64,000 nucleotides of DNA from an uncultured Nitrospiraceae bacterium (GTDB lineage Bacteria > Nitrospirota > Thermodesulfovibrionia > Thermodesulfovibrionales > SM23-35). This document shows, piece by piece, positions 1 to 16,578 of this stretch. Where the stretch lies: NCBI GenBank assembly GCA_963727775.1, contig CAVSHB010000004.1, forward strand, positions 288,001 through 352,000, given 5' to 3'. The translations under genes were made by a program, and so were the position numbers. Positions within the stretch are counted from its first letter, which is position 1; each line of letters begins with the position of its first letter. The notes beneath the pieces are model-generated. The model made no database searches, was not told the DNA's origin, and saw only the letters and a list, made by a program, of their open reading frames with translations.

Positions 1-356
1 AAGTTCAAATAAACATCCCCTGCGTATCGCAGGCTTAAGGGATAACCGAGTTATGATGTGAGCAAAATGTCGAGCGTCCATAAATCATGTGACTTGCGGA
101 CACTGAATTGTCACGCATGAAACCCGCCCTTATCAAGTAATCCAGGTCGGAAATTTGCGAGGGTTTTATGGACAGATGCTTGAGCGGAGAAGTGATCCAA
201 GGCTCTGCATGCAAACATTGAAAGTGCTTCACATACTATCTTCTCAATGTTCCCTGTTATGAGCTAAAATAAACTCAGTTAAGGGACGGTACCGGCAAGC
301 CGAGAGTGAAACACTGTCGATGCGAGCGAAATGTTCCTCGATTAAAGCACTGGAAA

Positions 357-1334
357 ATGAAAAAGCAAGAGAATCCTCTACTGTCAATATTCGAAAGAGC
401 GGCAACATTACCGGAGAATCCTCCAGGGTCAATATTCGATAGACTTATGGCAGTATTCCCCCCATTTGATGATCCACTCCTCTCTCTACAGGATCGATCG
501 AGAGATTTTGAAACAGAAGCAGAATACTTCTGGATACATCTTTTGGAGAGAAATCAACTTTGGATGGGGGCCGGAGACACAGTAAGCTTCACACCGACAA
601 CACATCATTTCCATACTCCTTATAAACAATTCATTACGCAGGGAATGCTATTCCCTGCCTGTTTTTGCCATTACCCAAGCCGATACACTGAAAGTTTTGC
701 AATAGTGCGAGGTCTGTTAAATTGGCCCAAAATAGGAGCCTGCTTCTCAGGCCTAAAGATTAAAGAGAAAGATCTTGAATTTATTGTTTTCATACTGAAA
801 CCCTGGCCATTTACCAATCAGTTCACAGAGGGATATCCTAAACTTGAATCATTTGTTCATTCAACATGCGCTGAAATAAACGGGGTAATAAAAAGGCTTT
901 CACCTTTAGCAAAACAATTGAATGAGATTGAATTCCCATATACTGACATATTGCCTACTGTAGAGTTCGATCACATTAAATGTAAGTATTATTTGGCCGT
1001 GTGCCGCAAGATAGTACAATTGGGCAAGAAAATCCCAGACATGTACTTTAAGCATTTTGGGATAGAGAAAAGTAAATATAAATCACCGCAGAAACATACT
1101 TTTTGGAAATATGCTGTTGCCGGTGCAATACATAAGCTTAATGAATATTGCCATGACGCTGACTGCGACCCGAGGAGATGCACTGTCGATCATGTTAAAG
1201 CCTACCGAGTAGTAGCCCGCCTCCTTAAGATATTGTATCCATCCATCTGGCGAGGAAATATTGCTGTGATTTCAAACATTATCAAATCCAAACACAACGT
1301 ATTACTAAAGACTCTTGAATCGAAGAGTGCATAG
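357..1334 (+). CDS. Hypothetical protein of the integrative element
   Basis: Long ORF (track start GTG 306; ATG 357 preferred); no recognisable motif. Confidence 0.7.
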   Translation: MKKQENPLLSIFERAATLPENPPGSIFDRLMAVFPPFDDPLLSLQDRSRDFETEAEYFWIHLLERNQLWMGAGDTVSFTPTTHHFHTPYKQFITQGMLFPACFCHYPSRYTESFAIVRGLLNWPKIGACFSGLKIKEKDLEFIVFILKPWPFTNQFTEGYPKLESFVHSTCAEINGVIKRLSPLAKQLNEIEFPYTDILPTVEFDHIKCKYYLAVCRKIVQLGKKIPDMYFKHFGIEKSKYKSPQKHTFWKYAVAGAIHKLNEYCHDADCDPRRCTVDHVKAYRVVARLLKILYPSIWRGNIAVISNIIKSKHNVLLKTLESKSA

Positions 1335-1376
1335 GACCAATTCAGTATTTTCCCTTCCTCACGCGTAATTATTAAA

Positions 1377-3327
1377 CAGGAGTTTAAGGGGTAACTGCAT
1401 TTGAACTCTCCAACCGCTGGAAATTACTAGCTTTTTCCGACGACTTACTGTAAGACCCTACATTATTGTATAACAAACCCATTATTTGTGCGTTTTAAAT
1501 GCATTTTATGCTTGACATGTAAGACCCTACCATGGTAGTATTTGACATGGCACATTTCCATATCAAGACGAAAAAGGGAAGACCCTACCTCTATGTGCGC
1601 GAGATTGCCCGCGTTGGAGGGAAGCCTAAGGTAGTCTCCCAAATATACATCGGCTCTCCTGAACGGGTGGCTGGTCTCGTGGCAGGCTCTGCAGAGGCGG
1701 CAGTCAGGCTCAAAGTGGAAGAGTTCGGAGCATTGTGGCTGGCCCATCAAGTTAGCCAAGATGTTGACCTTGTGGGCATTGTAGACAAGGAGATCCAGAG
1801 GGGTACTCAGGAGGAAGGTCCGTCCGTAGGAGAGTATTTTTTGTACTGCATATGGAATCGGATGTGCGAGAGCACCAGCAAGAACAAGCTTGCCCAATGG
1901 TATGGGCGAACGGCTGTCCAGCAGATTCGTCCTGTTGATATTGATGAGTTCACCAGTCAACGCTACTGGGAAAAGTGGGACAGGGTATCGGAAGCTGCAC
2001 TCAAGACAATTGCCCGGCGATTCTTTGAGAGCATCTGGGAGCTTGAATCCCCTAATGCCGACTGTCTGCTGTTCGATACCACGAACTACTACACCTTTAT
2101 GGCGAGTGATACGCCCTCTGAGCTTGCTCGCCGGGGGAAGAACAAGGAAGGACGACATAATCTCCGGCAGATCGGATTAGGGCTTCTGGTATCGCGCGAT
2201 AGCCGGCTGCCGTTGTACTATTGCGCCTATCCGGGCAATCTCCATGACAGTCGTCAGTTTGAGGCGGTCATGGATGAGATGTTCGGAGTCGTATGCGGAC
2301 TGAACAAGACGAAACAAAAACTTACCGTCGTGATAGACAAAGGGATGAACTCCGAGGGCAATTTCGCTTGGATAGACGAGCACTCCCGCATACATTTTGT
2401 GACGACGTATTCAACCTACTTCGCCGAGGAACTGGCCATGACGTCTTTGGATGTCTTTGAGCCGGCGGACACGGAGAAGAATCGGCTACTGCTACAGAAG
2501 GGGAAGAAGGAGGACCGCATGCTCGTGTACCGAACAAAGGGCGAATACTGGGGCAAGCAACGGGCGGTAGTGGTAACGTATAATCCGATAACGGCAAGAA
2601 AGCAAACCTACACGCTTGACAGTAAACTGGATGCGATCCGACAGGAACTCCTTGCCATGAGGTCAAAGGTTCGTAATAAAGAACCTCATTGGCGCAAACA
2701 GGAAGCGATCCGAGAAAGATATCTGCGTCTCTGTGAGCGTTTTCACGTGCCGAGCGATTTCTACGCCCTGGAGTTCTCTCAGACGGCAGAAGGTTTGGGT
2801 ATGAGTTTCCGGAGAGATGGGACGGCCATCGAGCGAAAGCGCATAATGCTCGGCAAGAACATCATTATCACCGACAACGTGGATTGGACCACAACGGCTA
2901 TAGTAAAAGCCAGCCTCGACCGATGGCAAGTGGAGAGCCGCTTCCGGCTTAGCAAAGAAGACGATCTGGTTGCCATGCGGCCCATAAGACACTGGACCGA
3001 CAGCAAGATACGCTGTCACCTGTTCAGTTGTGTTGTCGCTATGACATATTTGCGGCGGATTGAGTTGAAACTTAATGCCACAGGTATTCATCGCACAGCG
3101 GAAGACGTCATGGAGGACATGCGGAATCTACATTCTGTACTGCTTTTAAAGGAAGGCGGAAGAAAGGCTGGCCGCCAGATAGAGATACCGACGAAGACCC
3201 AAGCCGAAGTCCTATCGGCTTTTGGTTTCTCAGTAAATGCCAGTGGGGTCTTACACCCCAAAACCAGCTAAAGCCTTGTCATTGTTAGATCTGTGAGACT
3301 TTTTAGAGGTTACCCCTTAAACTCCTG
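1377..3327 (+). mobile_element. IS1634-family insertion sequence
   Basis: Perfect 19-bp terminal IRs CAGGAGTTTAAGGGGTAAC (1377-1395; 3309-3327), flanked by 5-bp direct repeat TTAAA (1372-1376; 3328-3332). Confidence 0.92.
1547..3271 (+). CDS. IS1634-family DDE transposase
   Basis: N-terminal KKGRPYLY, LFDTTN, YPGNLHD, VIDKG, RWQVESRFR and RPIRHWTD..IRCH motifs. Confidence 0.92.
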   Translation: MAHFHIKTKKGRPYLYVREIARVGGKPKVVSQIYIGSPERVAGLVAGSAEAAVRLKVEEFGALWLAHQVSQDVDLVGIVDKEIQRGTQEEGPSVGEYFLYCIWNRMCESTSKNKLAQWYGRTAVQQIRPVDIDEFTSQRYWEKWDRVSEAALKTIARRFFESIWELESPNADCLLFDTTNYYTFMASDTPSELARRGKNKEGRHNLRQIGLGLLVSRDSRLPLYYCAYPGNLHDSRQFEAVMDEMFGVVCGLNKTKQKLTVVIDKGMNSEGNFAWIDEHSRIHFVTTYSTYFAEELAMTSLDVFEPADTEKNRLLLQKGKKEDRMLVYRTKGEYWGKQRAVVVTYNPITARKQTYTLDSKLDAIRQELLAMRSKVRNKEPHWRKQEAIRERYLRLCERFHVPSDFYALEFSQTAEGLGMSFRRDGTAIERKRIMLGKNIIITDNVDWTTTAIVKASLDRWQVESRFRLSKEDDLVAMRPIRHWTDSKIRCHLFSCVVAMTYLRRIELKLNATGIHRTAEDVMEDMRNLHSVLLLKEGGRKAGRQIEIPTKTQAEVLSAFGFSVNASGVLHPKTS

Positions 3328-3382
3328 TTAAAAAATACTTTTCATTTTCATATCCTCATTATTCATGTAAAAATTAGATACC

Positions 3383-3634
3383 ATGAGAAAGAACAACGAT
3401 CTTCGAGAAAGATTTTATACCACCCTCGATGCCTACCAGGCCGGCTTCTTAACTCTCAGAAGATTTCATTCAAAACTTATTGATCAAAACGGAAAGATTG
3501 TTTTTGTTTTCGATTTGTCCGACGAACTGTTACAGGCTCTTGCCGATTATAACACTGGAGCGGTCGTGGAGGCGTCGAGGTTCGCATTTGCGATAAAGAC
3601 TCTAAAAAGCCAAATACATTCAATGAGAAGGTAA
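3383..3634 (+). CDS. Small DUF5659-like protein
   Basis: 83 aa, pattern FYTT.D...A.FL....G..VFVF typical of this small mobile-element family (from memory). Confidence 0.6.
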   Translation: MRKNNDLRERFYTTLDAYQAGFLTLRRFHSKLIDQNGKIVFVFDLSDELLQALADYNTGAVVEASRFAFAIKTLKSQIHSMRR

Positions 3635-3832
3635 AAAAGGGAAAAAATATGGCAATTAGGGAAAGGAAGGATAAGTATCAGCGAAACCTTTTTACAGAAT
3701 TTGAGGCGATAGTTGGCGGAAACAATACATCAATTATTTTAGATCCAATCTTTCACCTGATTCGTTTCTGCCCACGACGACCTTCTTAAATGAATGGATC
3801 TATTGCCACGATAAGGGATAAGGAAAATAGAC

Positions 3833-4381
3833 GTGGGTTATACAAACACCAAATATAGAATTCCCGGAGGCGGGGTATTTATACCGTGGGATATCTTGAA
3901 CAATACAACAAGCACTGCATATCGAGATTTAAAACCTTCAGCGGCTAAAGCCCTCCCTTTCTTTTTAGGTAAGGTCAAGTTCGGTAGGAAATCCTGCATT
4001 GAATATGGCTCTCCTCAGTATTATGAAATCGAATTCAAATTTCCTTTTTACGAGGCCCGGAAAAATGGCTTTGCAAATTCGACGTTTGAAACGATTATCG
4101 AAGAACTCATAAATAAAGGTTTTATTGATCCAGTTCATCGGGGAGGCATGAAAAGTCAGGGGTTGGGGTTCAGTAAATTTAGGCTATCGCCACGATGGAA
4201 GGAATACGGGAAACCAGCGTTTGTAAAAATCGACTGGGGACATTACAAGATAAGAAAACCTCGCGTCAGGACCATGGAGGAAGCCCGTGTCTTTTGTCAG
4301 CCTGAAGACATAGAAAAGCGTTTTTCAGTTCCAAAACGTGAAACAAACAATTCCAAAAATGGAAATATTAGCAGAGGATAG
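3833..4381 (+). CDS. Winged-helix protein, putative replication initiator
   Basis: AYRDLKPSA..AL and STF...IEELINKGFID wHTH pattern; repeats at its 3' end. Confidence 0.6.
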   Translation: MGYTNTKYRIPGGGVFIPWDILNNTTSTAYRDLKPSAAKALPFFLGKVKFGRKSCIEYGSPQYYEIEFKFPFYEARKNGFANSTFETIIEELINKGFIDPVHRGGMKSQGLGFSKFRLSPRWKEYGKPAFVKIDWGHYKIRKPRVRTMEEARVFCQPEDIEKRFSVPKRETNNSKNGNISRG

Positions 4382-4672
4382 AACGGATTATTTCACAAAA
4401 TGGAACTGTAAGGGGTACAACAACGTGAAAGTTATTTCACTTTCTGGAGGTATTACTATAGTAACCAGAGCATACGAATGCGAACGTCCCATCTCTCACG
4501 TAAGACTGCATTCTTCAATAGCATTGCCTTTGATTCAAACATTAGATTTTCAAACGAGGTCTCTGATAGGACGGTTAACCATGAATGATAAGCTGACCAA
4601 ACCCTCATATATTAATAAAAATAGGATGTTTGCAAATGTTGGCACGCCAACCACTTTGATAAGGAGGAAAAT

Positions 4673-5275
4673 GTGAAAAAGGGCGCTGATCCCGAAATAA
4701 TTAGATTCCACAACGAAGGGAAGTCCTTCCGTGAGATAGGCCGCCTCATCGGTATCTCTCATGTTGCCGTGAGAAAGCGATATTTGAGGGCCGCGAAGGT
4801 TACCGGTGATATGAGCCAAACAAGCAATGCAGAAGGCACTGGTAACCTGAGAAAACCTGAAGTCCCACTAAACCCCGCAATAACCGAGGCTAATAAACGA
4901 GAAGGTTCGGAAGTCATTAAAGCACTGCTTGATGGTAAGCAGCCCGGTAACCTAAGAGAGGACGAGGTTTCGCCATCAGTGAGCGAGGAAGAAAACTTAA
5001 CAAAACTTAACATCGCGACGGAGAACACAAAAGCACCGGTAGAACCGAAATATTACCGACATGTCCCCACAGGGCAAATCTTTTACCGCAACGATAAGAT
5101 CAAGGAGGAGATAAAGGCAGAACTCGAACCCTATTACCCTCCAAAGTATCTCAGAAAATGGAACGAGCCTAATCGCGGTGGAATTTTTATCTGGACACTT
5201 GCATTGTCTCGGAGACCAGATTTCGAGCCTTACGATGGTGAATTGCCGGCAGCGTTGAAACGTGAGGGGAAGTGA
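4673..5275 (+). CDS. N-terminal HTH DNA-binding protein
   Basis: EGKSFREIGRLIGISHVAVRKR HTH; SD AAGGAGG upstream of GTG. Confidence 0.75.
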   Translation: MKKGADPEIIRFHNEGKSFREIGRLIGISHVAVRKRYLRAAKVTGDMSQTSNAEGTGNLRKPEVPLNPAITEANKREGSEVIKALLDGKQPGNLREDEVSPSVSEEENLTKLNIATENTKAPVEPKYYRHVPTGQIFYRNDKIKEEIKAELEPYYPPKYLRKWNEPNRGGIFIWTLALSRRPDFEPYDGELPAALKREGK

Positions 5276-5314
5276 CTGAATGAATGCATGCTTTAAGATC
5301 AAGGTTGTGGATAT

Positions 5315-5539
5315 ATGATAAGAAAGATTCTACCGCCAGAAAATAAGACCGTTTTCAACGCTTCCGAGGCGTGCGGATATATGGGCGTTTGCTGGAATAG
5401 CCTGAAAAAGTTAATTAATGAAGGCGAAATTAGAGCCATAAGGATTGGGAAAAGATATTTAATCCCTAAAGAGTCGTTAGACAATTTTATTAATCAAGAT
5501 GCAATGATAACACGAGCTTTCGTGAAAGGGATGAAATAA
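5315..5539 (+). CDS. Excisionase-family (HTH_17) protein
   Basis: FNASEACGYMGV...LINEGEIRAIRIGKRYLIPKESLDNFI; directly upstream of the integrase. Confidence 0.85.
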   Translation: MIRKILPPENKTVFNASEACGYMGVCWNSLKKLINEGEIRAIRIGKRYLIPKESLDNFINQDAMITRAFVKGMK

Positions 5540-5577
5540 CCTTGACTCTTTCTAATAGGGACAACTACAATCTGAAT

Positions 5578-6552
5578 ATGCGCCTTTTTCGACGAGCAAA
5601 CGGTGTTTATTATGCAGAGTTAAAGAGGGGTGTCTGGCGATCACTTAAAACAAAAGATGAGCGGGAAGCAAAAACCAGATTTAAGAGTATCGCCAGAGAG
5701 GCATTGAAAGGCAAACTCCTTCTTCTTGATAAACAATCTACGATAACTATTCAAGAATTTTTTGATGAATACCTAAAATGGGCTGAGAATAACAGATCCA
5801 GGACCACGCATGAAAGAGCTACATATACGATTAAGAAATTCGTCGTGGCATTAGGCGGCAGTAGAGATCTCGTATCGCTTAAATCAAAAGACATGGATAC
5901 ATTTCTTGATTACTGCCGGATGAAAGGGAATAAACCGCCCACCCTCGATATCGAAAGAAGAACAATAAAGGGGATACTGACTCAGGCGGTCAAATGGGAA
6001 TATTTAAAGGCGAATCCTTTCAAGGGGTATGCTCAGATCAAATTCCATAAGAGATTGCCCTTATGGCTTGAACTGGATCAGATCAAGAGAGTATTTGATG
6101 TTATCGGTAGTAATCGAGGCTATCGACTTATGTTTGCCTTATTCATTTATACGGGAGGCCGAAGAGAAGAAATAAAGAAGTTGCAATGGTCTGATATAAA
6201 AAATGAGGGGATACATTTTAGAGAAACGAAAAACTACCAGGCAAGAACAATCCCTATTTGTGATAGCCTTAAGAATATTTTGGCTGAATATGACAGAGGA
6301 GTCGGTTTTCTGTTTGACATTTCTTTAGATCAAATCACTCACAGAATGAAATATTATCTCAGAAAAGCGGAAGTAGGTTATATAAGAACTCATGATCTTA
6401 GGCATACGTTTGCATCGCATCTCAGGAAGGCGGGAGTTAGCATTGACAGGATAAAGGAATTATTAGGTCACAAATCGTTATCTACCACCATGATTTATGC
6501 TCACCTTGACCAAACAGACCTAAAAGAAGCAATGCGGAAATTACCTTATTAG
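5578..6552 (+). CDS. Tyrosine recombinase/integrase
   Basis: TGGRREE, HDLRHTFAS, LLGH, TMIYAH catalytic motifs. Confidence 0.95.
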   Translation: MRLFRRANGVYYAELKRGVWRSLKTKDEREAKTRFKSIAREALKGKLLLLDKQSTITIQEFFDEYLKWAENNRSRTTHERATYTIKKFVVALGGSRDLVSLKSKDMDTFLDYCRMKGNKPPTLDIERRTIKGILTQAVKWEYLKANPFKGYAQIKFHKRLPLWLELDQIKRVFDVIGSNRGYRLMFALFIYTGGRREEIKKLQWSDIKNEGIHFRETKNYQARTIPICDSLKNILAEYDRGVGFLFDISLDQITHRMKYYLRKAEVGYIRTHDLRHTFASHLRKAGVSIDRIKELLGHKSLSTTMIYAHLDQTDLKEAMRKLPY

Positions 6553-6561
6553 AATGTTGAG

Positions 6562-6582
6562 AATGCAAGCAAAATGCAAGCA
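6562..6582. repeat. Tandem AATGCAAGCA repeat, putative integrase arm-type sites
   Basis: 10-mer at 6562-6571 and 6573-6582 between int stop and tRNA fragment. Confidence 0.6.
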
Positions 6583-6623
6583 GGGGCTTTGTAGAATGGC
6601 TATAAATAAAGAAAGATCACACT

Positions 6624-6663
6624 ATCCTAAGTCCAGCGCGTCTGCCAGTTCCGCCACTCTCGC
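6624..6663 (-). pseudogene. 5' half of tRNA-Leu(UAG), attachment-site junction
   Basis: Minus strand GCGAGAGTGGCGGAACTGGCAGACGCGCTGGACTTAGGAT: acceptor 5' strand, D arm, anticodon 5' stem and loop CTTAGGA; the expected TCCAG and 3' half are absent. Confidence 0.9.
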
Positions 6664-6670
6664 ATGCATG

Positions 6671-6700
6671 ATTTTAAAGGATTCTTTGACATTCGGTCAA
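6671..6700 (-). promoter_or_regulatory. Sigma70 promoter of the tRNA-Leu half
   Basis: TTGACC-18-TAAAAT, 7 nt upstream of tRNA G1. Confidence 0.7.
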
Positions 6701-6820
6701 ACGTCTTCCCCGTCAAATCTGACTAAGTTGTGACTGTGGCAAGAATCGAGTGAGAGTGGAAATGCTTCCCTCGTAGCGATCCGGTGATCAGACGGAAGCT
6801 ATCCCCCGAATTCTAAAGTA

Positions 6821-7114
6821 TCAACATCCTTCTGATTTCAATCTTGTGGACTGTTGCTTCAGTCGTTCTGAGAGCCATACCTTTATGAGCGACTGATAAG
6901 GCACATCCCGTTTATTCGCCTCAATGCGTATTGCCTCAAGGAGCGAAAGCGGCAGCCGTAAAGAAATGGATTGAGTTGAAGGCTTCAGATTCGGAAAACG
7001 GGCGAGTACCGTCTTAGTGGAATCAAAATACTCGGACGTGTCGTGTGTCTCCCAAAAGCGGCGTTCTTCAACCTCTGACTTAAACTTCGGGGTTGCTTTT
7101 AATTTCTTGCTCAT
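6821..7114 (-). CDS. brnA: BrnA/CopG-type antitoxin
   Basis: PKFKSE.EER.FWETHD and ISLRL...YQSLIK RHH motifs; overlaps toxin gene. Confidence 0.85.
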   Translation of the reverse strand: MSKKLKATPKFKSEVEERRFWETHDTSEYFDSTKTVLARFPNLKPSTQSISLRLPLSLLEAIRIEANKRDVPYQSLIKVWLSERLKQQSTRLKSEGC

Positions 7115-7397
7115 ATAACTTCCTTTCTTTAGAATTCATATTACGGACGGAGATGACTCGTACCAGCGCACCGGCTTGTCTCAATGTGAAAATGACCATC
7201 ACGCGCCGGCCGTCTGCCGTTTCCCCGAGAGCCAGATATCTCCGTTCGGATTCGCCGTGCTTCTCATCCGGTGTAATGAAGAGCGGCTCATTAAAGAAGA
7301 CCTGTTCGGCCTCCGCCTGCGTGACACCATGCTTCTCATTCTTTCGAGCATTGCCAGTATCCCAATCAAATCCCTCTAATTTATCGAGGTCTATCAC
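7080..7397 (-). CDS. brnT: BrnT family toxin (DUF497)
   Basis: FDWD.GN..KNEKHGV...EAEQVF, E.R...LG, RVISVR motifs. Confidence 0.9.
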   Translation of the reverse strand: MIDLDKLEGFDWDTGNARKNEKHGVTQAEAEQVFFNEPLFITPDEKHGESERRYLALGETADGRRVMVIFTLRQAGALVRVISVRNMNSKERKLYEQEIKSNPEV

Positions 7398-7401
7398 GAT
7401 T

Positions 7402-7432
7402 GTATATTATCATAATATACTTAATAAAGCAA
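7402..7432 (-). promoter_or_regulatory. brnTA promoter with palindromic operator
   Basis: TTGCTT-17-TAATAT; perfect IR GTATATTAT-C-ATAATATAC (7402-7420) over the -10. Confidence 0.7.
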
Positions 7433-7674
7433 AACAAACCTGACTGAATAATTTCTGAGGCCGGGTAAAGGAGATTTGAAAATATTTCCAAGTTTCATGG
7501 GAATATTTCCTTTTACAGGACAGATTGCCCGTAATGAGTACTATTATTTTCTTAAAAATCAAAATAAATCTATACCTTACATTTTGGCATCTTTATTGCA
7601 TTTATTTTTTTAAAAATTTATAACTTCCAGCATTTGATGATGTAAAGTTTAAATTTCGAATACTTGATAAAGCT

Positions 7675-8190
7675 ATGTGGAAAATTCTTATAAATGAAAC
7701 CCAATTAAGAGAATGGGTTGAAGCGGCCGGAAGGATCAAGGAAGATTTCGGCATAGATAGGGCTTTGGGATACCTCATAGGAGAAAAATTCTATAGTATT
7801 GTTTCCCCTCTCCGTTCCTGCAAAGAATTAATCAGGACTATTGATGAAGAAATGAAGAATCCGGATTATAATCCGGTAGGCGTGACATTATACAGAAGCC
7901 GTAAACTTGTGACCAACCTGCACGAGATTTATAAAAAAGAAATTGCGATCATCACAGAGACCGAGAAACTGTTATTCAAATTTACAGCGTTGATCAGGGA
8001 AGCCTTTGAGCCATATGAGATACGCAACTATTTTAAATCCAATCCCCGATTCGGCATGAAGGCGCATATCGCCTCCGATGAGGAATATGAGTTTCTTGCC
8101 GGCAGAGGAATTGTTGAACATTCGTTAGACACCGAAATTGATGACGCGCTGATATACGGAGGAATAATGAAGTATTTTTATAATTCCTGA
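7675..8190 (+). CDS. Hypothetical protein
   Basis: 171-aa ORF, no recognised motif. Confidence 0.65.
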   Translation: MWKILINETQLREWVEAAGRIKEDFGIDRALGYLIGEKFYSIVSPLRSCKELIRTIDEEMKNPDYNPVGVTLYRSRKLVTNLHEIYKKEIAIITETEKLLFKFTALIREAFEPYEIRNYFKSNPRFGMKAHIASDEEYEFLAGRGIVEHSLDTEIDDALIYGGIMKYFYNS

Positions 8191-8272
8191 TAACCGGGAA
8201 CCATTGGCATCCCTGCCTTCACGCTGCTCTGAAGTTATCTAACTCTGCTTAGAATAGATTCAAACGGTGGGA

Positions 8273-8641
8273 TTACTGCGAGACTTTGTTTCCCTTCTTA
8301 CCCTCTGCGGCTTCCGCAGTATTGTCAGTTGCGCCGCCTCCGGGTAATTCTGTAATCGTGTCAACGGCCTTTGCGAAGTCCGTCTTGACCTGTTCCTTAA
8401 TGTCCTGCAACGACTTCCTTAATTCAATTCCGCCATCTATAATGCGTCTTTAATTCCGAACGCATCTTTAATCTCGCTGAACTCTTCGTGGACCTGTCCT
8501 TTTATATTATCCATTGATTTTTTTCAGCTCACCAAGACCTTTGCCGAGCGTCTTGGCTATTTGAGGAAGCTTGTCCGGACCAACAACAATTAGTGCGACA
8601 GCAAATATTACTATTAATTCTCCTATACCGAAATCAAACAT
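8273..8641 (-). pseudogene. tatB: TatB-like subunit, frameshifted
   Basis: MFDFGIGELIVIFAVALIVVGPDKLPQIAKTLGKGLGELKK, then +1 in an A7 run (8518-8524) and a compensating -1 near 8440. Confidence 0.8.
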
Positions 8642-8702
8642 CCGCTAACCATTCCCCCTGGTTCTTTACTGCTGCAGAAAAAGATTTATTATGAAGCAGA
8701 TT

Positions 8703-8885
8703 CTAACGGTCTTCTTTTTTATTCCCATCCTTTTGGGATGGCTCTATTTCATCAAGCTCGGACATGCCTTTTTTGAAATTCCTGATTGCCTGTCCCACGC
8801 CGCTGCCTAACTGAGGCAGTTTAGTCGCACCGAACAATACAACAACGATTATCCCGATAAGGAGTATATCCTGAGTTCCAAACAT
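8703..8885 (-). CDS. tatA: Twin-arginine translocase TatA
   Basis: TM helix-FG-KLPQLG..G..IRNFKK; SD GGAGG. Confidence 0.92.
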   Translation of the reverse strand: MFGTQDILLIGIIVVVLFGATKLPQLGSGVGQAIRNFKKGMSELDEIEPSQKDGNKKEDR

Positions 8886-8993
8886 TTTATGTTACCTCCG
8901 TTTTTAGTATTATATACTATTTAAAGATACGCATCTGAAAAAGCATTTACTCATGTTCCGCGTCTTTGGCCGGCATAGACAAGGGTTCATAAA

Positions 8994-10424
8994 TTACTCG
9001 ACCAATACCCTCAATGCGCCTCGTCTGTGCGGATGTTTCAGTTTTCTAAGAGCCTTTGCCTCTATCTGCCTGACCCTTTCACGCGTTATCGAAAAATGTC
9101 CGCCTATCTCTTCAAGGGTGTAGTCTTTCTCAAACCCTATGCCGAACCTCATCCTTATAATCTCGGCTTCCCTCTGTGACAGAGTATTGAGCACCTTCAG
9201 TACATGCTCCGTCACATTATTCCTTTCCGTATTGGAATACGGAGTCGGACTGTCCGCATCACTAACAAAATCCTCGAGTTTTGATTCATCATCTCCTACC
9301 GGAGTTTCAAGAGCTATGGGGTCTTGTATCGCTGTGAATACTTCTTCGATTTTTTCTGCTGATACTTCCAATCTTTTGGCGATCTCTTCCTTACTCGGTT
9401 CCCGCCCAAGCAGTTGTCTTAGTTCCCTGGATGCTTTAGTGGCTTTATTATAAAATTCCACTGCATGCACCGGGACTCTGATGGTCTTTGTTTGATCGAT
9501 CAGCGCCCTTGTTATCGCCTGTCTTATCCACCACGTCGCATATGTACTGAACTTAAACCCCATTTCATACTTAAACTTGTCTACGGCCCTCATGAGACCG
9601 ATATTCCCTTCCTGGATGAGATCAAGCAGGGCCAATCCCCTTCCCACGTAACTTTTGGAAATATTAATCACCAGTCTCAGGTTGTGGGTTATTAATTCAT
9701 TTTTTGCTTCACTTATAAGAGTCCTTGCCTTGGTTATCCTGTCCCATTTGGCCTTCAATTCATCTATCTTGATTCCAACCTCTGATTCGATCCGTTTGTA
9801 CTTGTCCTGGACTTCTTTGGCAACGGCATTGAGTTGTTGATAATTGCTGTCCTGTCTCTTTTTCCCTTTTATTATCTTTTTTAAATTCTTTAAAGTACTG
9901 TATCTTGCAATCTTTCTGTCCGTTATCTCTATTTCAAACATGAGATTGTCGAGTAACTTCAGGCTCATTTTAACGACTTTCTCTGCTTTTTCTTCCTTAG
10001 TATCATTCAAGTCCTCTTCGCCTTTTTCATCCAGATCCGCTTCCAGTTTCTCATATAAAGGCAGTGCTGTAACTATCTCTTTGATGATCTTCTTCCCTTC
10101 AACCAGCTTTTTGGCAAGCTCTCTTTCTTCGTCCCTCTTAAGCACTGAAATATTTCCCATCGAATGGAAATATGTCTGGACAATGTCCTCCATTTTTTCA
10201 GGCTTATCTTCTTTTTCTAAAGGCGCTTCTTCCTCACCTGTAATAAAATCGATATCCTGATCATCTATGACGTCAACTCCAGCATCATGGAGAAGGTCCA
10301 TAAGTTCTTTCAGCTCATCTATGGACAAATACTCTGCGGCAATATCATTTATTTCCGCATAGGTGAGCCTTCCATGACTCTTGCCCATATCAATAATCTC
10401 TTCAAAAATATCCTCTTTTTCCAT
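8994..10424 (-). CDS. RpoD-like sigma-70 factor with region 1.1
   Basis: [51 protein letters not shown]. Confidence 0.92.
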
Positions 10425-10605
10425 GAGACTCCTTAAAATAAATTTGTTAATTTTTCTTGGTCAATTTACGTCTATTCTTTTTTTCACTTATTTATTTTTA
10501 ATATAAGTTAATAATATGAAGAAATAATGAAGAAAATATGAAAGAATGTGAAGAATCGGCTAACCGTTGCTTTTTGAAACGATTTCCGAAAATTATAGAA
10601 AATAA

Positions 10606-11298
10606 TTATTTATCCACTGCATCATCAAATCGGGCGCCGTCAAGTTTTGTACGTACCATATCCGCGGCTTTGAGTCGAGCGCCTCTTAAGTCAGCGCCTT
10701 CGAGGTCTGCTGCCATAAAGCTCACTTCGAGGATTTCGGTATCTCTGAGGTCCGCTGATGAGACATTTGCGCCGTTTAGGTCCGTTCCGTGCAACCTTGC
10801 CCCACGGAGATCGGCCCCGGAAAGATCAGCGCCTATCATGCTTGAACCAAAGGCATAAACATTCCGGAGTACAGACTTTACCGCATTTATTAAAACAGCT
10901 TCCGTCATTTGGAGATTAGCATCTGAAAGATCGGCTTTCTCAAAATGGGCGGAAGACATTTTTGAATTGGTAAAGTTCGCTTTCCTAAGATTCGCCTCGA
11001 AAAAGTCAGCGCCTATAAATGAAGCAAAGGTTAAGTCGGAGTTCTCAAGGTTAGCGTGTCTAAAGCTCGCACCGATGAAATTGGAACTGCTCATGTTGCA
11101 ATTAGATAAATCCGCATTGTCGAAATTCGACATGCAAACATTAGAACTGCTTAAGTTTGCACCCTGTAAATTGGAACCCGTAAACCGTACGGAGATCAGA
11201 TCAAGGTTACTCAGATCAAGCCCGGAAAGATCATGGTCCGAAACATCACCAATTTCATAGGCTATTTTTTTTACTTGTGCCCTTGAAAGCCTTTCCAA
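10606..11298 (-). CDS. Pentapeptide repeat protein
   Basis: A(D/N)LxG five-residue repeats throughout. Confidence 0.9.
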   Translation of the reverse strand: MERLSRAQVKKIAYEIGDVSDHDLSGLDLSNLDLISVRFTGSNLQGANLSSSNVCMSNFDNADLSNCNMSSSNFIGASFRHANLENSDLTFASFIGADFFEANLRKANFTNSKMSSAHFEKADLSDANLQMTEAVLINAVKSVLRNVYAFGSSMIGADLSGADLRGARLHGTDLNGANVSSADLRDTEILEVSFMAADLEGADLRGARLKAADMVRTKLDGARFDDAVDK

Positions 11299-11338
11299 TT
11301 TCCCGGCCCCCTTAAAATAAGATAATTTCTTTTATCCA

Positions 11339-11800
11339 CTATTGTTCGGCCACCTCGCCTGCGATACTCCTTAGCATATCTTTCTTGCCGATAATTCCGG
11401 TAAGTTTCCCTTCCTTTGTGACCGGCAGGAGATGGATCTTCTTCTCTGCCATTATCGTAGCAATATAGTCAACGGTTGCTTCTTCATCTACGGTAATCAC
11501 TTCTTTCGAACAAATTTCGTCCACATCCGATGCAGCCATCCTTTTGATATCACTCTCCAGTTTGCTCGTGCCCAAAGGGATATAAGCGTCAAAAAGCCTT
11601 AATATGGTAGGGATATGGAGCCTGCTGTTTTTGCTTATCAGATCATTTTCAGTAACTATACCTATTAAATTTCCATTATGGTCAACCACAGGCGCGCCGC
11701 TGATTTGATGTTTCATAAGTATCCGGGCAAGCTCCTCTAAAGTGGTGGCCGGTTTAACCGTTATTACCTTTGTTGTCATTATGTTCTTTGCCTTCAGCAT
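11339..11800 (-). CDS. CBS domain protein
   Basis: Tandem CBS motifs (ISGAPVVD...GIVTEND; LPV...GIIGKKD). Confidence 0.9.
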   Translation of the reverse strand: MLKAKNIMTTKVITVKPATTLEELARILMKHQISGAPVVDHNGNLIGIVTENDLISKNSRLHIPTILRLFDAYIPLGTSKLESDIKRMAASDVDEICSKEVITVDEEATVDYIATIMAEKKIHLLPVTKEGKLTGIIGKKDMLRSIAGEVAEQ

Positions 11801-11847
11801 GCCATCTCCTTTAATAATTTTATTTGCTGTTTTTTAAGAATTCTATC

Positions 11848-13497
11848 TTATCCGCTCTTCTTTTGTTTCATGGAATCGTCAACCGAATCAGCCCGGTAAT
11901 ACTCACCATGCCCTGGGAAAATGATTGCATACTTCCCATCTCCCTTCAAGTTACTATCCAGAGCCATTATAACATCTCTGAGGGCATCCGATTCTTTCCT
12001 GAAAAGCCGGCTGTCGCTGTTGGGATTCGTCAGGAGGTACCTGTATACACTAAGGATGTCACGGTCTTCAGGAGACAACCTATGAATATTGATCAGGAAG
12101 TCGGACGTAAAGACAAGTCCGTGTTCCCTGCTCAGGAAAAATACATGTCCGGGGATATGGCCGCCGTGACTTTCGAGGACCTGGAATTTAATATTGCCTA
12201 TTTTAAAGACATCAATGATTTTAAATTCCCTTTCTTTACCGATGCTTACCTGGGAAAAATAACGGGCTTTTTCAGGAAACCTACAGTCGGTAAATTTGTT
12301 AATAAGTCTCGTGTAATATTTATTAAGGTTGGACAATCTGCCGGACGCTCCGTATGCCCTGTTATTATGTTCTATAACACCTCTGCCGTCGGGGTGCATA
12401 AATACATCGGCGCCGAATTCTTCCGCAAAATACCCTGTTGTACCCGCATGGTCGGCATCCGGATGTGTAAGGAATATCCTCCTGACCTTCGAAGGGTCCA
12501 GTGATTTCTTTCTCATCAGCTTTTTAATGTCCTCATAATATACCCCGTACCCGGAATCAATCATGGTCATCTCATCATCATGCAGGAACAGGTAGATATT
12601 TTCGGTTGTCGGAAGGCGAAAGCTGTAAAGCACGACCCTTTCATCTATCCGAATCAAAGGCATCTCGATTACTGAAAACCTGTCACCGGCCTTACTCCTC
12701 GATTTAGACGCCAGGGCCAGTATCTTTTCAAATACATCCCCTGCATCGAGGGAGTTTCCCGCCTCCTCGTAAAACTTGATAAGGTCGGCATACAACTCCT
12801 GAGAAGAGTCGACTATCGACTTTAATTCATTGAAGTCTCTGTCTGCCAGAAGTCTGCGCAGTCTCAGGAAAAACTTTTCGACCAGCTTCAGTCCGATAAT
12901 GTGTTCTACTTCTTTTTCATCAGCCCCCTTATATAAAACCCGATAGTAATAACCGGCTTTATTGACCGCATCCAATACCCTGTCGATTTCTTCAAGGTCC
13001 TTTGTAGCCAGCGCGATAACCGCGGACTCCGGATCGATATCTTCGTCGTAGAGCATATAGATGACATTCGCGTCATGTGCTTTGAGAAGGTCCGCAAACG
13101 CGGCAAGGGTACCCGGTTTATTCACAAGACGCACTTTTATCTGAAGAATGTTCTTAAGGCTCGTAATCTGAACATCGTCTTTCTCCACGCAGGTTTCTTC
13201 AAAGATATACCAGTTCATTGCCAAAGAACTTAAAAGTGCTTCAAGATCGTTCTGCGCCGGCATCAGGACTTCAACTACAACACGGTTGCTGTGAACAGAC
13301 CTGTCATAATGGAAAAAACTGATATTGCCTCCGGAGCCGGCTATTAATAAGGCAAGGTCGGCGAGAGAACCGGGCCGGTCCTGGAGAAACACGCAGAATT
13401 TTACAACAATCTCCTTTGTTTCTTCAGCCGGAACGGAAACGCGCTTATATATTTTTACGGGCAACATGGAAAGATAATGCAAAAGCCTGTCCTTCAT
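11848..13497 (-). CDS. Tandem ACT + metallo-beta-lactamase-fold protein
   Basis: DRPGSLA and NKPGTLA ACT motifs; THPDADH, GHIPGH, FTSD, PGHG. Confidence 0.8.
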   Translation of the reverse strand: MKDRLLHYLSMLPVKIYKRVSVPAEETKEIVVKFCVFLQDRPGSLADLALLIAGSGGNISFFHYDRSVHSNRVVVEVLMPAQNDLEALLSSLAMNWYIFEETCVEKDDVQITSLKNILQIKVRLVNKPGTLAAFADLLKAHDANVIYMLYDEDIDPESAVIALATKDLEEIDRVLDAVNKAGYYYRVLYKGADEKEVEHIIGLKLVEKFFLRLRRLLADRDFNELKSIVDSSQELYADLIKFYEEAGNSLDAGDVFEKILALASKSRSKAGDRFSVIEMPLIRIDERVVLYSFRLPTTENIYLFLHDDEMTMIDSGYGVYYEDIKKLMRKKSLDPSKVRRIFLTHPDADHAGTTGYFAEEFGADVFMHPDGRGVIEHNNRAYGASGRLSNLNKYYTRLINKFTDCRFPEKARYFSQVSIGKEREFKIIDVFKIGNIKFQVLESHGGHIPGHVFFLSREHGLVFTSDFLINIHRLSPEDRDILSVYRYLLTNPNSDSRLFRKESDALRDVIMALDSNLKGDGKYAIIFPGHGEYYRADSVDDSMKQKKSG

Positions 13498-13508
13498 TGG
13501 ATCAAATA

Positions 13509-14405
13509 TTACAGATTCAGTTTCGTTAACGAAACTGGGTTTACATTTATATTAAGCACCTTGACCCCGAAATGGAGATGGGGCCCGGTCGCCCTGCCTG
13601 TTGACCCGACCAAACCTATCACATCCCCTTTTAAGACGACATCTTCCGTGCGGATATTCATTTTAGACAAGTGCATATAAATAGAATATATTCCCTGTCC
13701 ATGGTCGATGATGATTGTATTTCCTCCGAAAAAAAGATTTTCGGCCAAAACAACCTTGCCCCTGTTTGACGCCTTTATTTCCTCACCGTCGGCGCCCTTT
13801 ATGTCCACCCCTTTGTGCACGCTTGTCCATTTACCGTTCATTATCCTCTCCGTACCGAACGGGGTCAATAAACAGTTTTCAAGCGGGAGCATAAAACCGC
13901 CGTCCCAGAGCTTTTCGGATACTGTCGAAAAAATTGCGCTCAATTTTTCATCTTCTTTTTTAGACCTCATAAGATCTTCGGGTTTTAAAACCACTTTATC
14001 CTCGGGCAGAGTGATTTTTATCTGCCGGAAATGCGCTTTCTTAACACGTAATTTCAGATTCTTCTTCTTTTCACCGATTATCACTTCTACCGCGTATACC
14101 GCAGGTTTTGTTTTTATATCAACCGCTCCGACGGCAACATAACAGTCCGCCCCGCAACTGTTGAAACTGAACTTTGTGTTTTCTAAGGAAGCGGACGGCA
14201 CACTTGCAGTTTTTGACCCGGTTACCTTAATGAGGAATACGTCTCCGGGCATGACCTTTGTTGGAAAAACCTCCACCCGCAATGTTCTCGCATATGCATG
14301 GTGTGAAAGAATAAAAATTGTGGTTACTATTAGAGATACAACAATCAAAAAAGTTCGGGTATTCTTTTGCAAAGGGTCCGAGTATATCTTTTTTATGAGT
14401 TTCAT
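13509..14405 (-). CDS. M23 family metallopeptidase
   Basis: HKGVD, YMHLS, TGPHLHF motifs. Confidence 0.9.
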   Translation of the reverse strand: MKLIKKIYSDPLQKNTRTFLIVVSLIVTTIFILSHHAYARTLRVEVFPTKVMPGDVFLIKVTGSKTASVPSASLENTKFSFNSCGADCYVAVGAVDIKTKPAVYAVEVIIGEKKKNLKLRVKKAHFRQIKITLPEDKVVLKPEDLMRSKKEDEKLSAIFSTVSEKLWDGGFMLPLENCLLTPFGTERIMNGKWTSVHKGVDIKGADGEEIKASNRGKVVLAENLFFGGNTIIIDHGQGIYSIYMHLSKMNIRTEDVVLKGDVIGLVGSTGRATGPHLHFGVKVLNINVNPVSLTKLNL

Positions 14406-14440
14406 TTCCCAATCACATGAATCTTTGCGCTTGATGAAGA

Positions 14441-15346
14441 TTACGTTAAAAGAAACTCTAACAGCGCCTTCTGGGTATGGAGTCTGTTTTCCGCCTGATC
14501 GAAAACAAAGCTGCGGGGACCGTCGAAAACTTCATCGGTTATCTCTTCGCCCCTGTGAGCAGGCATACAGTGAAGCACGATCACATCTTTATCCGCATAC
14601 GAAAGGAGTCCACTGTTTATCTGGTAATTGTTAAATTTCCGCTTTTTCAACGAAGCTTCCTTCTCCTGTCCCATGCTGACCCATACATCCGTATAGACAA
14701 CATCCGCGTCCGAGACTGCTTCTTTGGGGTCGTTAACAACGCGGACACTGCCTTTTGCAGATTCCATCGACTTCATCAAAACATCGCGGTCCGGCTCATA
14801 GCCTTTAGGGCAGGCTATGACAAAATTCATGCCCATTAAAGAGGCCGCCTCGATTAAAGAATTTGCCACATTATTCCCGTCTCCCACATAAGCAAAGCGG
14901 ATACCTTTCAGCCGTCCTTTCTTTTCAACGACCGTCATTAAGTCTCCAAGTGCCTGGCATGGGTGATGCAAGTCACTGAGACCGTTGATCACCGGAACAG
15001 AAGCATAAGATGCAAATTCCGTAAGGGCAGCATGGCTGTAAGTCCTTATAACAATTGCGTCAAGATACCGTGAAAGCACTTTGGCCGTATCATGGAGAGT
15101 TTCTCCCCTGCCGATCTGAATCTCCTTCGGGTTCATATAAATGGCCTGTGCGCCGAGCTGATAAATACCCGCTTCCAGTGATACCCGCGTTCTTGTGGAA
15201 GACTTTTCAAACAGGAGGCCGATGCTTTGTCCTATCAGAGGGCATTTACCCCGGTCTTTCCCGGATTTCAGTTCAATCGCCTTTTTGAGGAGACGCTTTA
15301 TCTCTTTAGATGTCAAATCCCGCAATGTCAAAAAATCTCTTTTCAT
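14441..15346 (-). CDS. argF: Ornithine carbamoyltransferase
   Basis: STRTR, HPCQ, SMG, HCMPAHRG. Confidence 0.95.
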   Translation of the reverse strand: MKRDFLTLRDLTSKEIKRLLKKAIELKSGKDRGKCPLIGQSIGLLFEKSSTRTRVSLEAGIYQLGAQAIYMNPKEIQIGRGETLHDTAKVLSRYLDAIVIRTYSHAALTEFASYASVPVINGLSDLHHPCQALGDLMTVVEKKGRLKGIRFAYVGDGNNVANSLIEAASLMGMNFVIACPKGYEPDRDVLMKSMESAKGSVRVVNDPKEAVSDADVVYTDVWVSMGQEKEASLKKRKFNNYQINSGLLSYADKDVIVLHCMPAHRGEEITDEVFDGPRSFVFDQAENRLHTQKALLEFLLT

Positions 15347-15378
15347 GTGCGCGCGAACCTTCTCTCAACCATCAAGTT

Positions 15379-16578
15379 TTATGATAATCCTGAAAAGACT
15401 TCCTTCAGAACATTCATGAGCTGGTCGATATCTTTACGTTGTATAATCAGAGGCGGGATAAAGCGTAAAATATTTCCTGCCGTACAGTTTATCAGCATCC
15501 CCTGTTCGAGACATGCCTTCACTATAGAATCACCTTCTTTTGTCAATTCCATTCCAATGAGCAATCCTTTCCCCCTTACTTCCTTAATAAGTTTCGGGAA
15601 CGCTTCCTTAAGCTCTTCGAGTCTTTCCATAAAATACGCGCTCATCCTGTTACACTGGTCCAGGATAAAGCCATCTTCAAGGAGCGTTTCGATCGTCGCC
15701 ACCGCGGCTGCGCAGACGAGCGGGTTCCCGCCGAAAGTCGATGCATGGTTGCCCGGCTGAAAAGCAGAAGCAACCCTGTCCGTTGCAAGCATGGCTCCAA
15801 TTGGGACACCGCCGCCGAGCCCCTTCGCGATAGTCATTATGTCCGGAGTGACACCGAAGTGCTCATACGCAAAAAGTTTTCCAGTCCTGCCCATACCGGT
15901 TTGGACCTCATCAAATATGAGCAATAAATTTTTTTCGTCACATAGTCCTCTTACCTTTTTCAGATAGTCCATGTCAGGCAGTCTGACACCGCCTTCACCC
16001 TGTATCGGCTCCAATAAAACGGCACATGTATTTTCTGTTATGATCTTGCCGAGTGCATCGATATCATTGAAGGGAACATATTTAAAACCCGGCACCAGAG
16101 GTTCGAATCCCTTCTGGAATTTCTCCTGTCCGGTCGCCGTGAGCGCTGCGAGCGTCCTTCCATGAAATGAATTTTTTGCAGTCACTATCTCAAAATGTTC
16201 AGGACCGTTCTTTTCTTTTGAATATTTCCTCGCGAGTTTTATCGCCGCTTCAACCGCCTCAGCCCCTGAATTGCAGAAAAATACCTTATCCGCGAAGGAG
16301 TTCTCGATAAGCAGTTTCGCGAGCTTTATCTGCGGCTCTATGTAGTAATAATTCGAGACATGCAGCAGCCTCTGCGACTGTTTCTGGATTGCAACAACAA
16401 CACGCGGATGACAGTGTCCGAGGATATTTACCGCAACCCCGCCTACAAAATCGAGATACTCCCTGCCGTCGGAGCTCCATACCTTCATACCCCTTCCTTT
16501 TCTGAGGACAACAGGGTATCTGCCGTACGTATTCATAATATAGCGGCTTGATTCTTCGAAGCATTTTTTGATGTCCAT
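15379..16578 (-). CDS. argD: Acetylornithine aminotransferase
   Basis: NSGAEA, SFHGRT, EPIQGEGG, DEVQTG, AKGLGGG. Confidence 0.95.
   Translation of the reverse strand: MDIKKCFEESSRYIMNTYGRYPVVLRKGRGMKVWSSDGREYLDFVGGVAVNILGHCHPRVVVAIQKQSQRLLHVSNYYYIEPQIKLAKLLIENSFADKVFFCNSGAEAVEAAIKLARKYSKEKNGPEHFEIVTAKNSFHGRTLAALTATGQEKFQKGFEPLVPGFKYVPFNDIDALGKIITENTCAVLLEPIQGEGGVRLPDMDYLKKVRGLCDEKNLLLIFDEVQTGMGRTGKLFAYEHFGVTPDIMTIAKGLGGGVPIGAMLATDRVASAFQPGNHASTFGGNPLVCAAAVATIETLLEDGFILDQCNRMSAYFMERLEELKEAFPKLIKEVRGKGLLIGMELTKEGDSIVKACLEQGMLINCTAGNILRFIPPLIIQRKDIDQLMNVLKEVFSGLS

Follow-up and report, generated by a model that had tools for sequence, protein, structure and literature searches.

A displaced 5′ half of tRNA-Leu(UAG) is very probably the attachment site of a 5′-type integrative island whose ends are assembled on two contigs

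The window analysed here is a stretch of 64,000 nucleotides (G000:C4:288001-352000, G000 being the source genome and C1 to C4 its contigs). At positions 6624..6663, on the minus strand, it holds a displaced 5′ half of tRNA-Leu(UAG), 100% identical to nt 1-40 of the whole gene at C1:1081352-1081437. We are confident that this half is the host-side attachment site of a tyrosine-integrase island of reversed (5′-type) polarity, targeted to the anticodon loop, and that the whole gene was rebuilt on C1. The attP of the island would carry the integrase arms, a promoter and nt 1-40 of the tRNA, and strand exchange would take place within the 7-nt anticodon loop. Integration would then leave the old promoter and the old 5′ half at the integrase end, i.e. 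in the window, and the far end would receive a rebuilt whole gene preceded by a promoter predicted in the island itself (C1:1081309-1081437), from which the tRNA would be read. With about 45 kb, compared to about 15 kb for the islands of relatives, the island would contain much later cargo and IS. The class is already known, and the locus adds an example, not a mechanism.

Together with the one base preceding it, the half is identical to the whole C1 gene at 41 of 41 positions (BLAST E 3e-16). The anticodon loop CTTAGGA, nt 33-39 of the tRNA, occupies window positions 6631-6625, and tRNA identity ends at nt 40, one base beyond the loop. The initial annotation had described a half-tRNA ending at this point and preceded by TTGACC-18-TAAAAT, a description borne out by the identity to nt 1-40 of the C1 gene. 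Positions 6624-6663 are likely the integrase-proximal attachment site; within the 40-nt repeat, the crossover would fall in the anticodon loop. As the same annotation had stated, no 3′ half is present in the window, where ARAGORN gave zero tRNAs; an Rfam scan of window positions 1-10000, at E up to 1, gave zero matches as well. It had also suggested looking for the 3′ half to the left of the window. That search came back empty: no 12-mers or 14-mers of the tRNA 3′ half matched near the window, and the matches on C4 belonged to a T-arm-like stretch (239669-239671). The 3′ half sits in the whole gene on C1, and the place searched was wrong because an IS swap, described below, put the two ends on different contigs. 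A search of all tDNAs of the genome for stray fragments found no separate 3′ fragment of tRNA-Leu(UAG), and no other 5′ fragment of the gene. Folding the half-tRNA chimera gave z values of -0.24 and 0.05 relative to shuffles; the real tRNA gave -0.28, so that the fold test is powerless here.

ARAGORN, which the initial annotation had proposed along with tRNAscan-SE to look for other Leu-UAG genes, was run on the whole genome. Its output was 47 tRNAs and a tmRNA; the whole gene on C1 is the only tRNA-Leu(TAG) among them. The codon CTA makes up 4.3% of leucine codons in the long ORFs of G000, and by standard wobble no other annotated tRNA of G000 reads it. The DNA before the C1 gene differs from the DNA before the half. 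It contains GTGACA-18-TATAAT, a match to the promoter consensus at 11 of 12 positions (2 such sites were found, vs 1.5 in shuffles), and, further up, a 17-nt match to the tmRNA 3′ end about 185 bp before the tRNA gene. A repeat triplet and terS-like genes also precede the gene. The terS-bearing end module (L001:8550-10200, C1:1079400-1081167) recurs, 82-94% alike, in elements beside tRNA-Asp, tRNA-Pro and tmRNA, the terS-like genes being common to elements at other tDNAs. Of the replication and packaging-interference modules of PICI-like phage satellites (primase/rep, terS), terS-like genes stand near the C1 end; no primase or capsid match was obtained among the scanned island proteins, which are part of the island's ORFs. 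One of the two options of the initial annotation, an element that brings a fresh 5′ half and promoter along at its far end, is supported by the distinct upstream region, by the GTGACA-18-TATAAT site, and by an arm-type repeat pair and an IS-split gene, both presented below. The locus illustrates cleanly how a tRNA gene present in one copy can have a predicted promoter of mobile-element origin. Two particulars of the C1 gene were noted besides: it has a run of 9 C at C1:1081421-1081429 (T-stem/acceptor), vs 8 in G201 and G343, the extra C being likely, and most simply, a homopolymer miscall; and in all three genes a C stands opposite A6 in the acceptor stem.

At the other end, the half lies 71 bp from the end of a whole tyrosine integrase ORF of 336 aa (5542..6552, plus strand; PF00589 E 2.7e-23, phrog_1 E 2e-62). 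The protein also has a SAM-like domain, and all six catalytic residues are present (R207-K230-H284-R287-H310-Y319); the enzyme is predicted to be active. Just before it lies an excisionase-like HTH gene (5315..5539, plus strand; PF12728, phrog_66 E 4.3e-05), and such a gene adjoins the integrase in 7 of the 11 regions examined in relatives. Between integrase and half, at 6564..6582 on the minus strand, the repeat pair TGCTTGCA-N3-TGCTTGCA is predicted to be an arm-type integrase binding site. The pattern TGC[GT][TC]GCA-N3-TGC[GT][TC]GCA has two occurrences in the 3.43 Mb of the genome, one at 42 bp from the half on the island side, the other 106 bp ahead of the whole C1 gene, both oriented alike with respect to the tRNA; as the pattern was derived from these two sites, its rarity is partly circular. 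Like repeats stand at matching places at both ends of the islands of G269 and G192. The rest of the island in the window consists, from the excisionase leftwards, of three plus-strand ORFs without family in the ORF list and family scan (4673-5275, 4338-4676 and 3833-4381), a DUF5659 gene (3383-3634, plus strand, by family match), an insertion sequence (1370..3330, plus strand) with a DDE transposase at 1532-3271 and 3 near-identical copies in the genome, and island DNA (1..1334, plus strand) with an ORF without family at 306-1334, which continues left of the window to C4:285592. Relatives of the DUF5659 gene and of 4673-5275 recur in G269, just outside its island. An integrase-based search for loci in genome contigs gave 2 distant loci and was uninformative.

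A sigma70-like promoter, TTGACC-18-TAAAAT, lies 7 nt before the half (6671..6700, minus strand) and matches the consensus at 10 of 12 positions. The sequence match alone is at chance level, as 4 promoter-like sites were found in 5300-7000, vs 4.0 in shuffles. Its support comes from conservation upstream of the intact genes of relatives and not from its consensus score: with a cut-off of our choice, at least 15 of the 24 bases upstream of the half are shared by 12 of 27 intact Leu-TAG genes of relatives. The same level of likeness is seen before 3 of the 47 tRNA genes of G000, and the whole C1 gene matches these upstream bases at 10 of 24 only. Positions 6671-6700 were likely the promoter of the tRNA gene before integration. 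Speaking against a plain host promoter, the same promoter module is found immediately after integrases of a second family, where it precedes the rebuilt tRNA-Leu(TAA) and tRNA-SeC of G000 and the rebuilt Leu(TAG) of G003 and G009. By this likeness of modules, the window promoter may itself have been left by an older 5′-type element; tblastn and motif searches of 6664-8300, upstream of the half, found no relic integrase. The promoter is directed into the integrase gene, and the first terminator-like site on the minus strand is at 6066-6045, so antisense RNA may run from the orphan promoter into the integrase 3′ end.

The DNA beyond the promoter belongs to the host flank. Outside the island lie a BrnT toxin / CopG antitoxin pair (6821..7397, minus strand; PF04365, PF12441) and a set of host genes (11339..16578, minus strand): CBS-like, MBL-fold, M23 peptidase, argF-like and argD-like, of which MBL and M23 are Pfam assignments and the CBS, argF and argD names were taken from reading the sequence. 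The 40-mer of the half was found, with at most 3 mismatches, in 34 of 40 relatives. The argD-like, argF-like and M23 genes (in some, CBS or MBL-fold) precede an intact tRNA gene in G006, G007 and G012, and a tRNA half in G003 and G009, i.e. 5 of the 34 relative loci, many of which are short. In G343, the same promoter and a copG fragment stand before an intact tRNA-Leu(TAG). Because these host genes and the promoter/copG piece of G343 precede intact genes in relatives, we conclude that the window is the ancestral tRNA-Leu(TAG) locus. As a point against our reading of the half, an empty site with both host flanks joined was found in no relative, and the genes that follow the C1 tRNA were beside the tRNA in none of the 34 loci, nor among the matches listed from 57 family genomes. 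An RpoD-like sigma factor gene (8994-10424), which has several paralogues in other parts of G000 (67-81% DNA identity), belongs to the variable DNA that separates the conserved host genes from the tRNA. The anticodon stem of tRNA-Leu(TAG) carries a compensatory change (GGCC...GAG) in three relatives, at L048 (G022:C108), L018 (G006) and L036 (G012). In G022 the gene is present in two whole copies separated by 4.9 kb, and a similar promoter module precedes both.

An exchange of flanks between two identical IS copies, in the cell or in the assembly, placed the ends of the island on different contigs. The element involved is a 1711-bp IS with DUF772 and DDE domains, which we take to belong to the IS1182 family; it is present in 10 copies, full or nested, plus a piece at a contig end, always with CTAG ends. 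One copy (C4:283881-285591, minus strand) lies 2.4 kb left of the window, and a copy 100% identical to it is at C1:1045196-1046906 (plus strand). Among the 121 flank pairings possible with 11 IS copies, a reading frame that stays open over 200 codons to either side is obtained only by joining the island-side flank of the C4 copy to the downstream flank of the C1 copy. Joined in turn, the two flanks left over match a paralogue at C1:1029921-1031040 with 90% identity over 1124 bp across the joint. The IS interrupts a gene for a 930-aa protein; aligned to its best full-length homologs, the C4 part covers residues 1-688, up to the IS, and the C1 part residues 688-931, from the IS onwards. When longer proteins were sought with the C1 piece, 535 matches were obtained; among the 120 of them listed, both pieces were matched by 85 of 105 homologs of at least 800 aa, and by 96 of 120 proteins of any length. 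Undoing the swap gives the order half, integrase, 9.0 kb, IS of 1.7 kb, 34.4 kb (C1:1046907-1081351) and whole tRNA, 45,188 bp in total. As assembled, the half is on the minus strand of C4 and the whole gene on the plus strand of C1; with the swap undone, the 5′ fragment is upstream and in the same orientation. Such a swap hides an island from same-contig searches.

As to the split protein itself, its pieces are at L002:17560-19662 (C4:285560-287662) and L004:5926-6639. It has 535 relatives, no Pfam family, an extra in-frame stop in the C4 piece, and an NPPY motif which is presumably methyltransferase-like; it is possibly an uncatalogued restriction-modification or defence protein. Elsewhere in the C1 part, a cassette at L005:4307-9086 (C1:1065307-1070086) with a UvrD helicase, a DNA polymerase IV/V-like gene, LexA/S24 and a further ORF has an 87% copy at C3:259651-263603.

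Whether the exchange occurred in the cell is, in our estimate, an even bet. The two IS copies would have undergone homologous recombination, giving an inversion, after which the island could no longer be excised as one circle and the tRNA would stay under the island promoter. Contigs of 0.38-1.57 Mb pass through many identical IS copies of 1.3-2 kb, so the assembly usually resolves them, and 3 of 8 copies of another IS had no matching target duplications by eye, which fits other IS-mediated exchanges. Against this, C3 begins inside a copy of the 1711-bp IS, so the repeat broke the assembly at least this once, and the assembly is gappy: tRNA-Leu(GAG), the motif of which is found in 38 of 40 relatives, is absent from G000, most simply through an assembly gap (G000 is 96.8% complete). 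The chances are evenly poised, too, that the swap is a misjoin at the repeat, the cell itself having an unbroken 45-kb island that can be excised. The two copies are 100% identical, one contig end falls in the same IS, and a reciprocal exchange of flanks is the expected product of a misjoin at a repeat; against a misjoin, where the target duplications of IS copies could be read by eye, the flanks were mostly correct (3 of 3 and 5 of 8). The target duplication of the 1711-bp IS itself, always CTAG, is uninformative on the swap. Neither GC skew nor fourfold-site skew could tell an inversion in the cell from a misjoin, and no sequencing-run contig bridging the junctions was found in 4 runs searched with window positions 1-12000 and 1 run searched with the C1 locus, the best DNA sequencing run containing 0.12 of the words of the stretch. 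One contig of run X3 joins 6666 to 7482, skipping the toxin-antitoxin block, a hint only, given its 40-letter side and 88% likeness. Elsewhere in the assembly, C3:578581-590001 and C2:1-11428 overlap at 97.6-99.5% identity, either an unmerged join or strain variation.

Relatives of the integrase were then compared. The searches covered 301 genomes of the class and 317 of the order (overlapping sets), and close relatives were present in 17 and 12 genomes respectively, G000 included. In a tree of 27 integrases, the window enzyme falls in a clade of 14 rows with support 100/100. In 8 of these 14 rows the integrase is followed by an opposite-strand 5′ half (Leu TAG, CAA three times, TAA, CAG-like, Gln and SeC), in 4 by a same-strand 3′ fragment (one by eye), and in 2 by none: one integrase clade holds both 5′-type and 3′-type members. 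Because the displaced fragment is at the integrase end in both polarities, this suggests that polarity may flip by turning the core between the arms. Both ends were on one contig in 2 of the 11 regions of relatives, most others stopping at contig edges. These two, G269 (integrase 55% identical) and G192 (42%), have the arrangement half, integrase, excisionase and whole tRNA-Leu on one contig, with direct repeats of 39 and 41 bp and the whole tRNA-Leu 14.6 and 15.7 kb further on. In G158, no whole gene was found within about 59 kb. The 34-kb C1 part of the island has no tblastx match to the islands of G269 and G192; judged by this and by the 17-nt tmRNA match, the C1 middle is a composite, and only the last ~185 bp are clearly the element's end.

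A more speculative reading, which we consider improbable, combines these observations. The IS swap would be a real inversion trapping the island, with attL and attR facing each other, and the intact integrase and excisionase would flip a large segment, toggling the sole tRNA-Leu(UAG) between the island promoter and its former one; 5′-type elements of this lineage would keep replacing tRNA promoters, and one clade would have switched polarity by turning the anticodon core between the arms. The flipping requires both that the swap be real and that the integrase be active.

It is quite improbable that the half is the relic of a different, older insertion, the C1 gene having been rebuilt by an unrelated element and the IS link being a coincidence. 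The locus is indeed a hotspot: halves ending at the same base were found in G003, G009, G011 and G026, and one ending a base earlier in G022, a count of 5 relatives that leaves out the whole genes L040, L041 and one L048 copy, judged by eye. The composite nature of the C1 part points the same way. Against a relic stand the split gene joined at the codon, the reciprocal flanks, the matching arm pair, the 100% identity of the repeat, and the uniqueness of this 5′ fragment in the genome. The other option of the initial annotation, drawn from a window without a whole tRNA, was regulated gene integrity, i.e. a tRNA cut in two by the element and made whole again by excision alone. This was rejected and is almost certainly wrong, since C1 has a whole tRNA-Leu(TAG) with a promoter-like site while the island is integrated, and no free 3′ fragment was found in the genome.

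Taking the half as the attachment site of a 5′-type island, we compared it with known systems. The initial annotation had it that anticodon-loop integrases normally restore the gene via a 3′ half; the departure from this rule was overstated, as Table 1 of the Islander article lists a 5′ tDNA fragment for 159 of 3919 islands, a catalogued minority (PMC4383910, Hudson, Lau and Williams 2015). Like the 5′-fragment islands as defined there, the present one has a tyrosine integrase on board (PF00589, with the excisionase-like gene and the att site adjoining it), an anticodon-centred site, a size within 2-200 kb (45,188 bp by coordinates), and a whole tRNA with a terminal fragment of the same gene (nt 1-40, 100% identical). 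In the assembly the 5′ fragment (C4, minus strand) is not upstream of and in line with the regenerated tRNA (C1, plus strand); it would be with the swap undone, and it is directly so in G269 and G192. The island differs from those of Islander in that its ends are on two contigs after the IS swap, and a same-replicon search of the kind described in that article would miss it; islands split across scaffolds are treated in PMC9580842.

A close single case is the archaeal pTN3 of Thermococcales, for which, in its description by Cossu et al. 2017 (PMC5495485), 41 bp are shared with the 5′ half of tRNA-Leu and the rebuilt gene is separated from its promoter. In both elements attB is the 5′ half of a tRNA-Leu, and the rebuilt tRNA is parted from its original promoter. 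The two differ in that pTN3 has its attP within the integrase gene, integration splits that gene, and the integrase promoter drives the tRNA. The present integrase is undivided, stops 71 bp short of the site, and occupies the end of the island away from the rebuilt tRNA. A suicidal integrase of the pTN3 kind was rejected, the ORF at 5542-6552 being whole and att starting at 6624. As stated in PMC8371274 (Badel et al. 2021), tRNAs at 5′-type sites are expressed from the element, a situation seldom met in bacteria. Recombination at the 5′ side is called 'considerably less frequent' in PMC6563490, where Zhao and Williams 2002 is cited for a bacterial 5′-region precedent; their reversed-orientation element is also cited in PMC1635311.

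Among the terminal tDNA fragments of G000, 5 of 15 were of the 5′ type, a proportion that was not filtered as Islander filters. With the two polarities found in one clade, it provides material on how target polarity flips, and the side results also bear on whether a host may grow dependent on tRNA promoters carried by elements. Two compact 5′-type islands of G000 are at tRNA-Leu(TAA) (C1:1145684-1152370, 6.6 kb) and at tRNA-SeC (C3:283687-290751, 7 kb), in both of which the integrase immediately precedes the whole gene and has the same orientation. Two orphan 5′ halves, of SeC and Arg(CCT), were seen at C3:123301-123343 and C2:11706-11745, their partners being other-oriented or on another contig. 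Finally, a 1.2-kb mini-island in a relative (L037, G009:C47:38419-39701) separates a 5′ half from a whole tRNA-Leu(TAG), and contains a PIN-like ORF, named by eye, together with only a C-terminal stub of an integrase.
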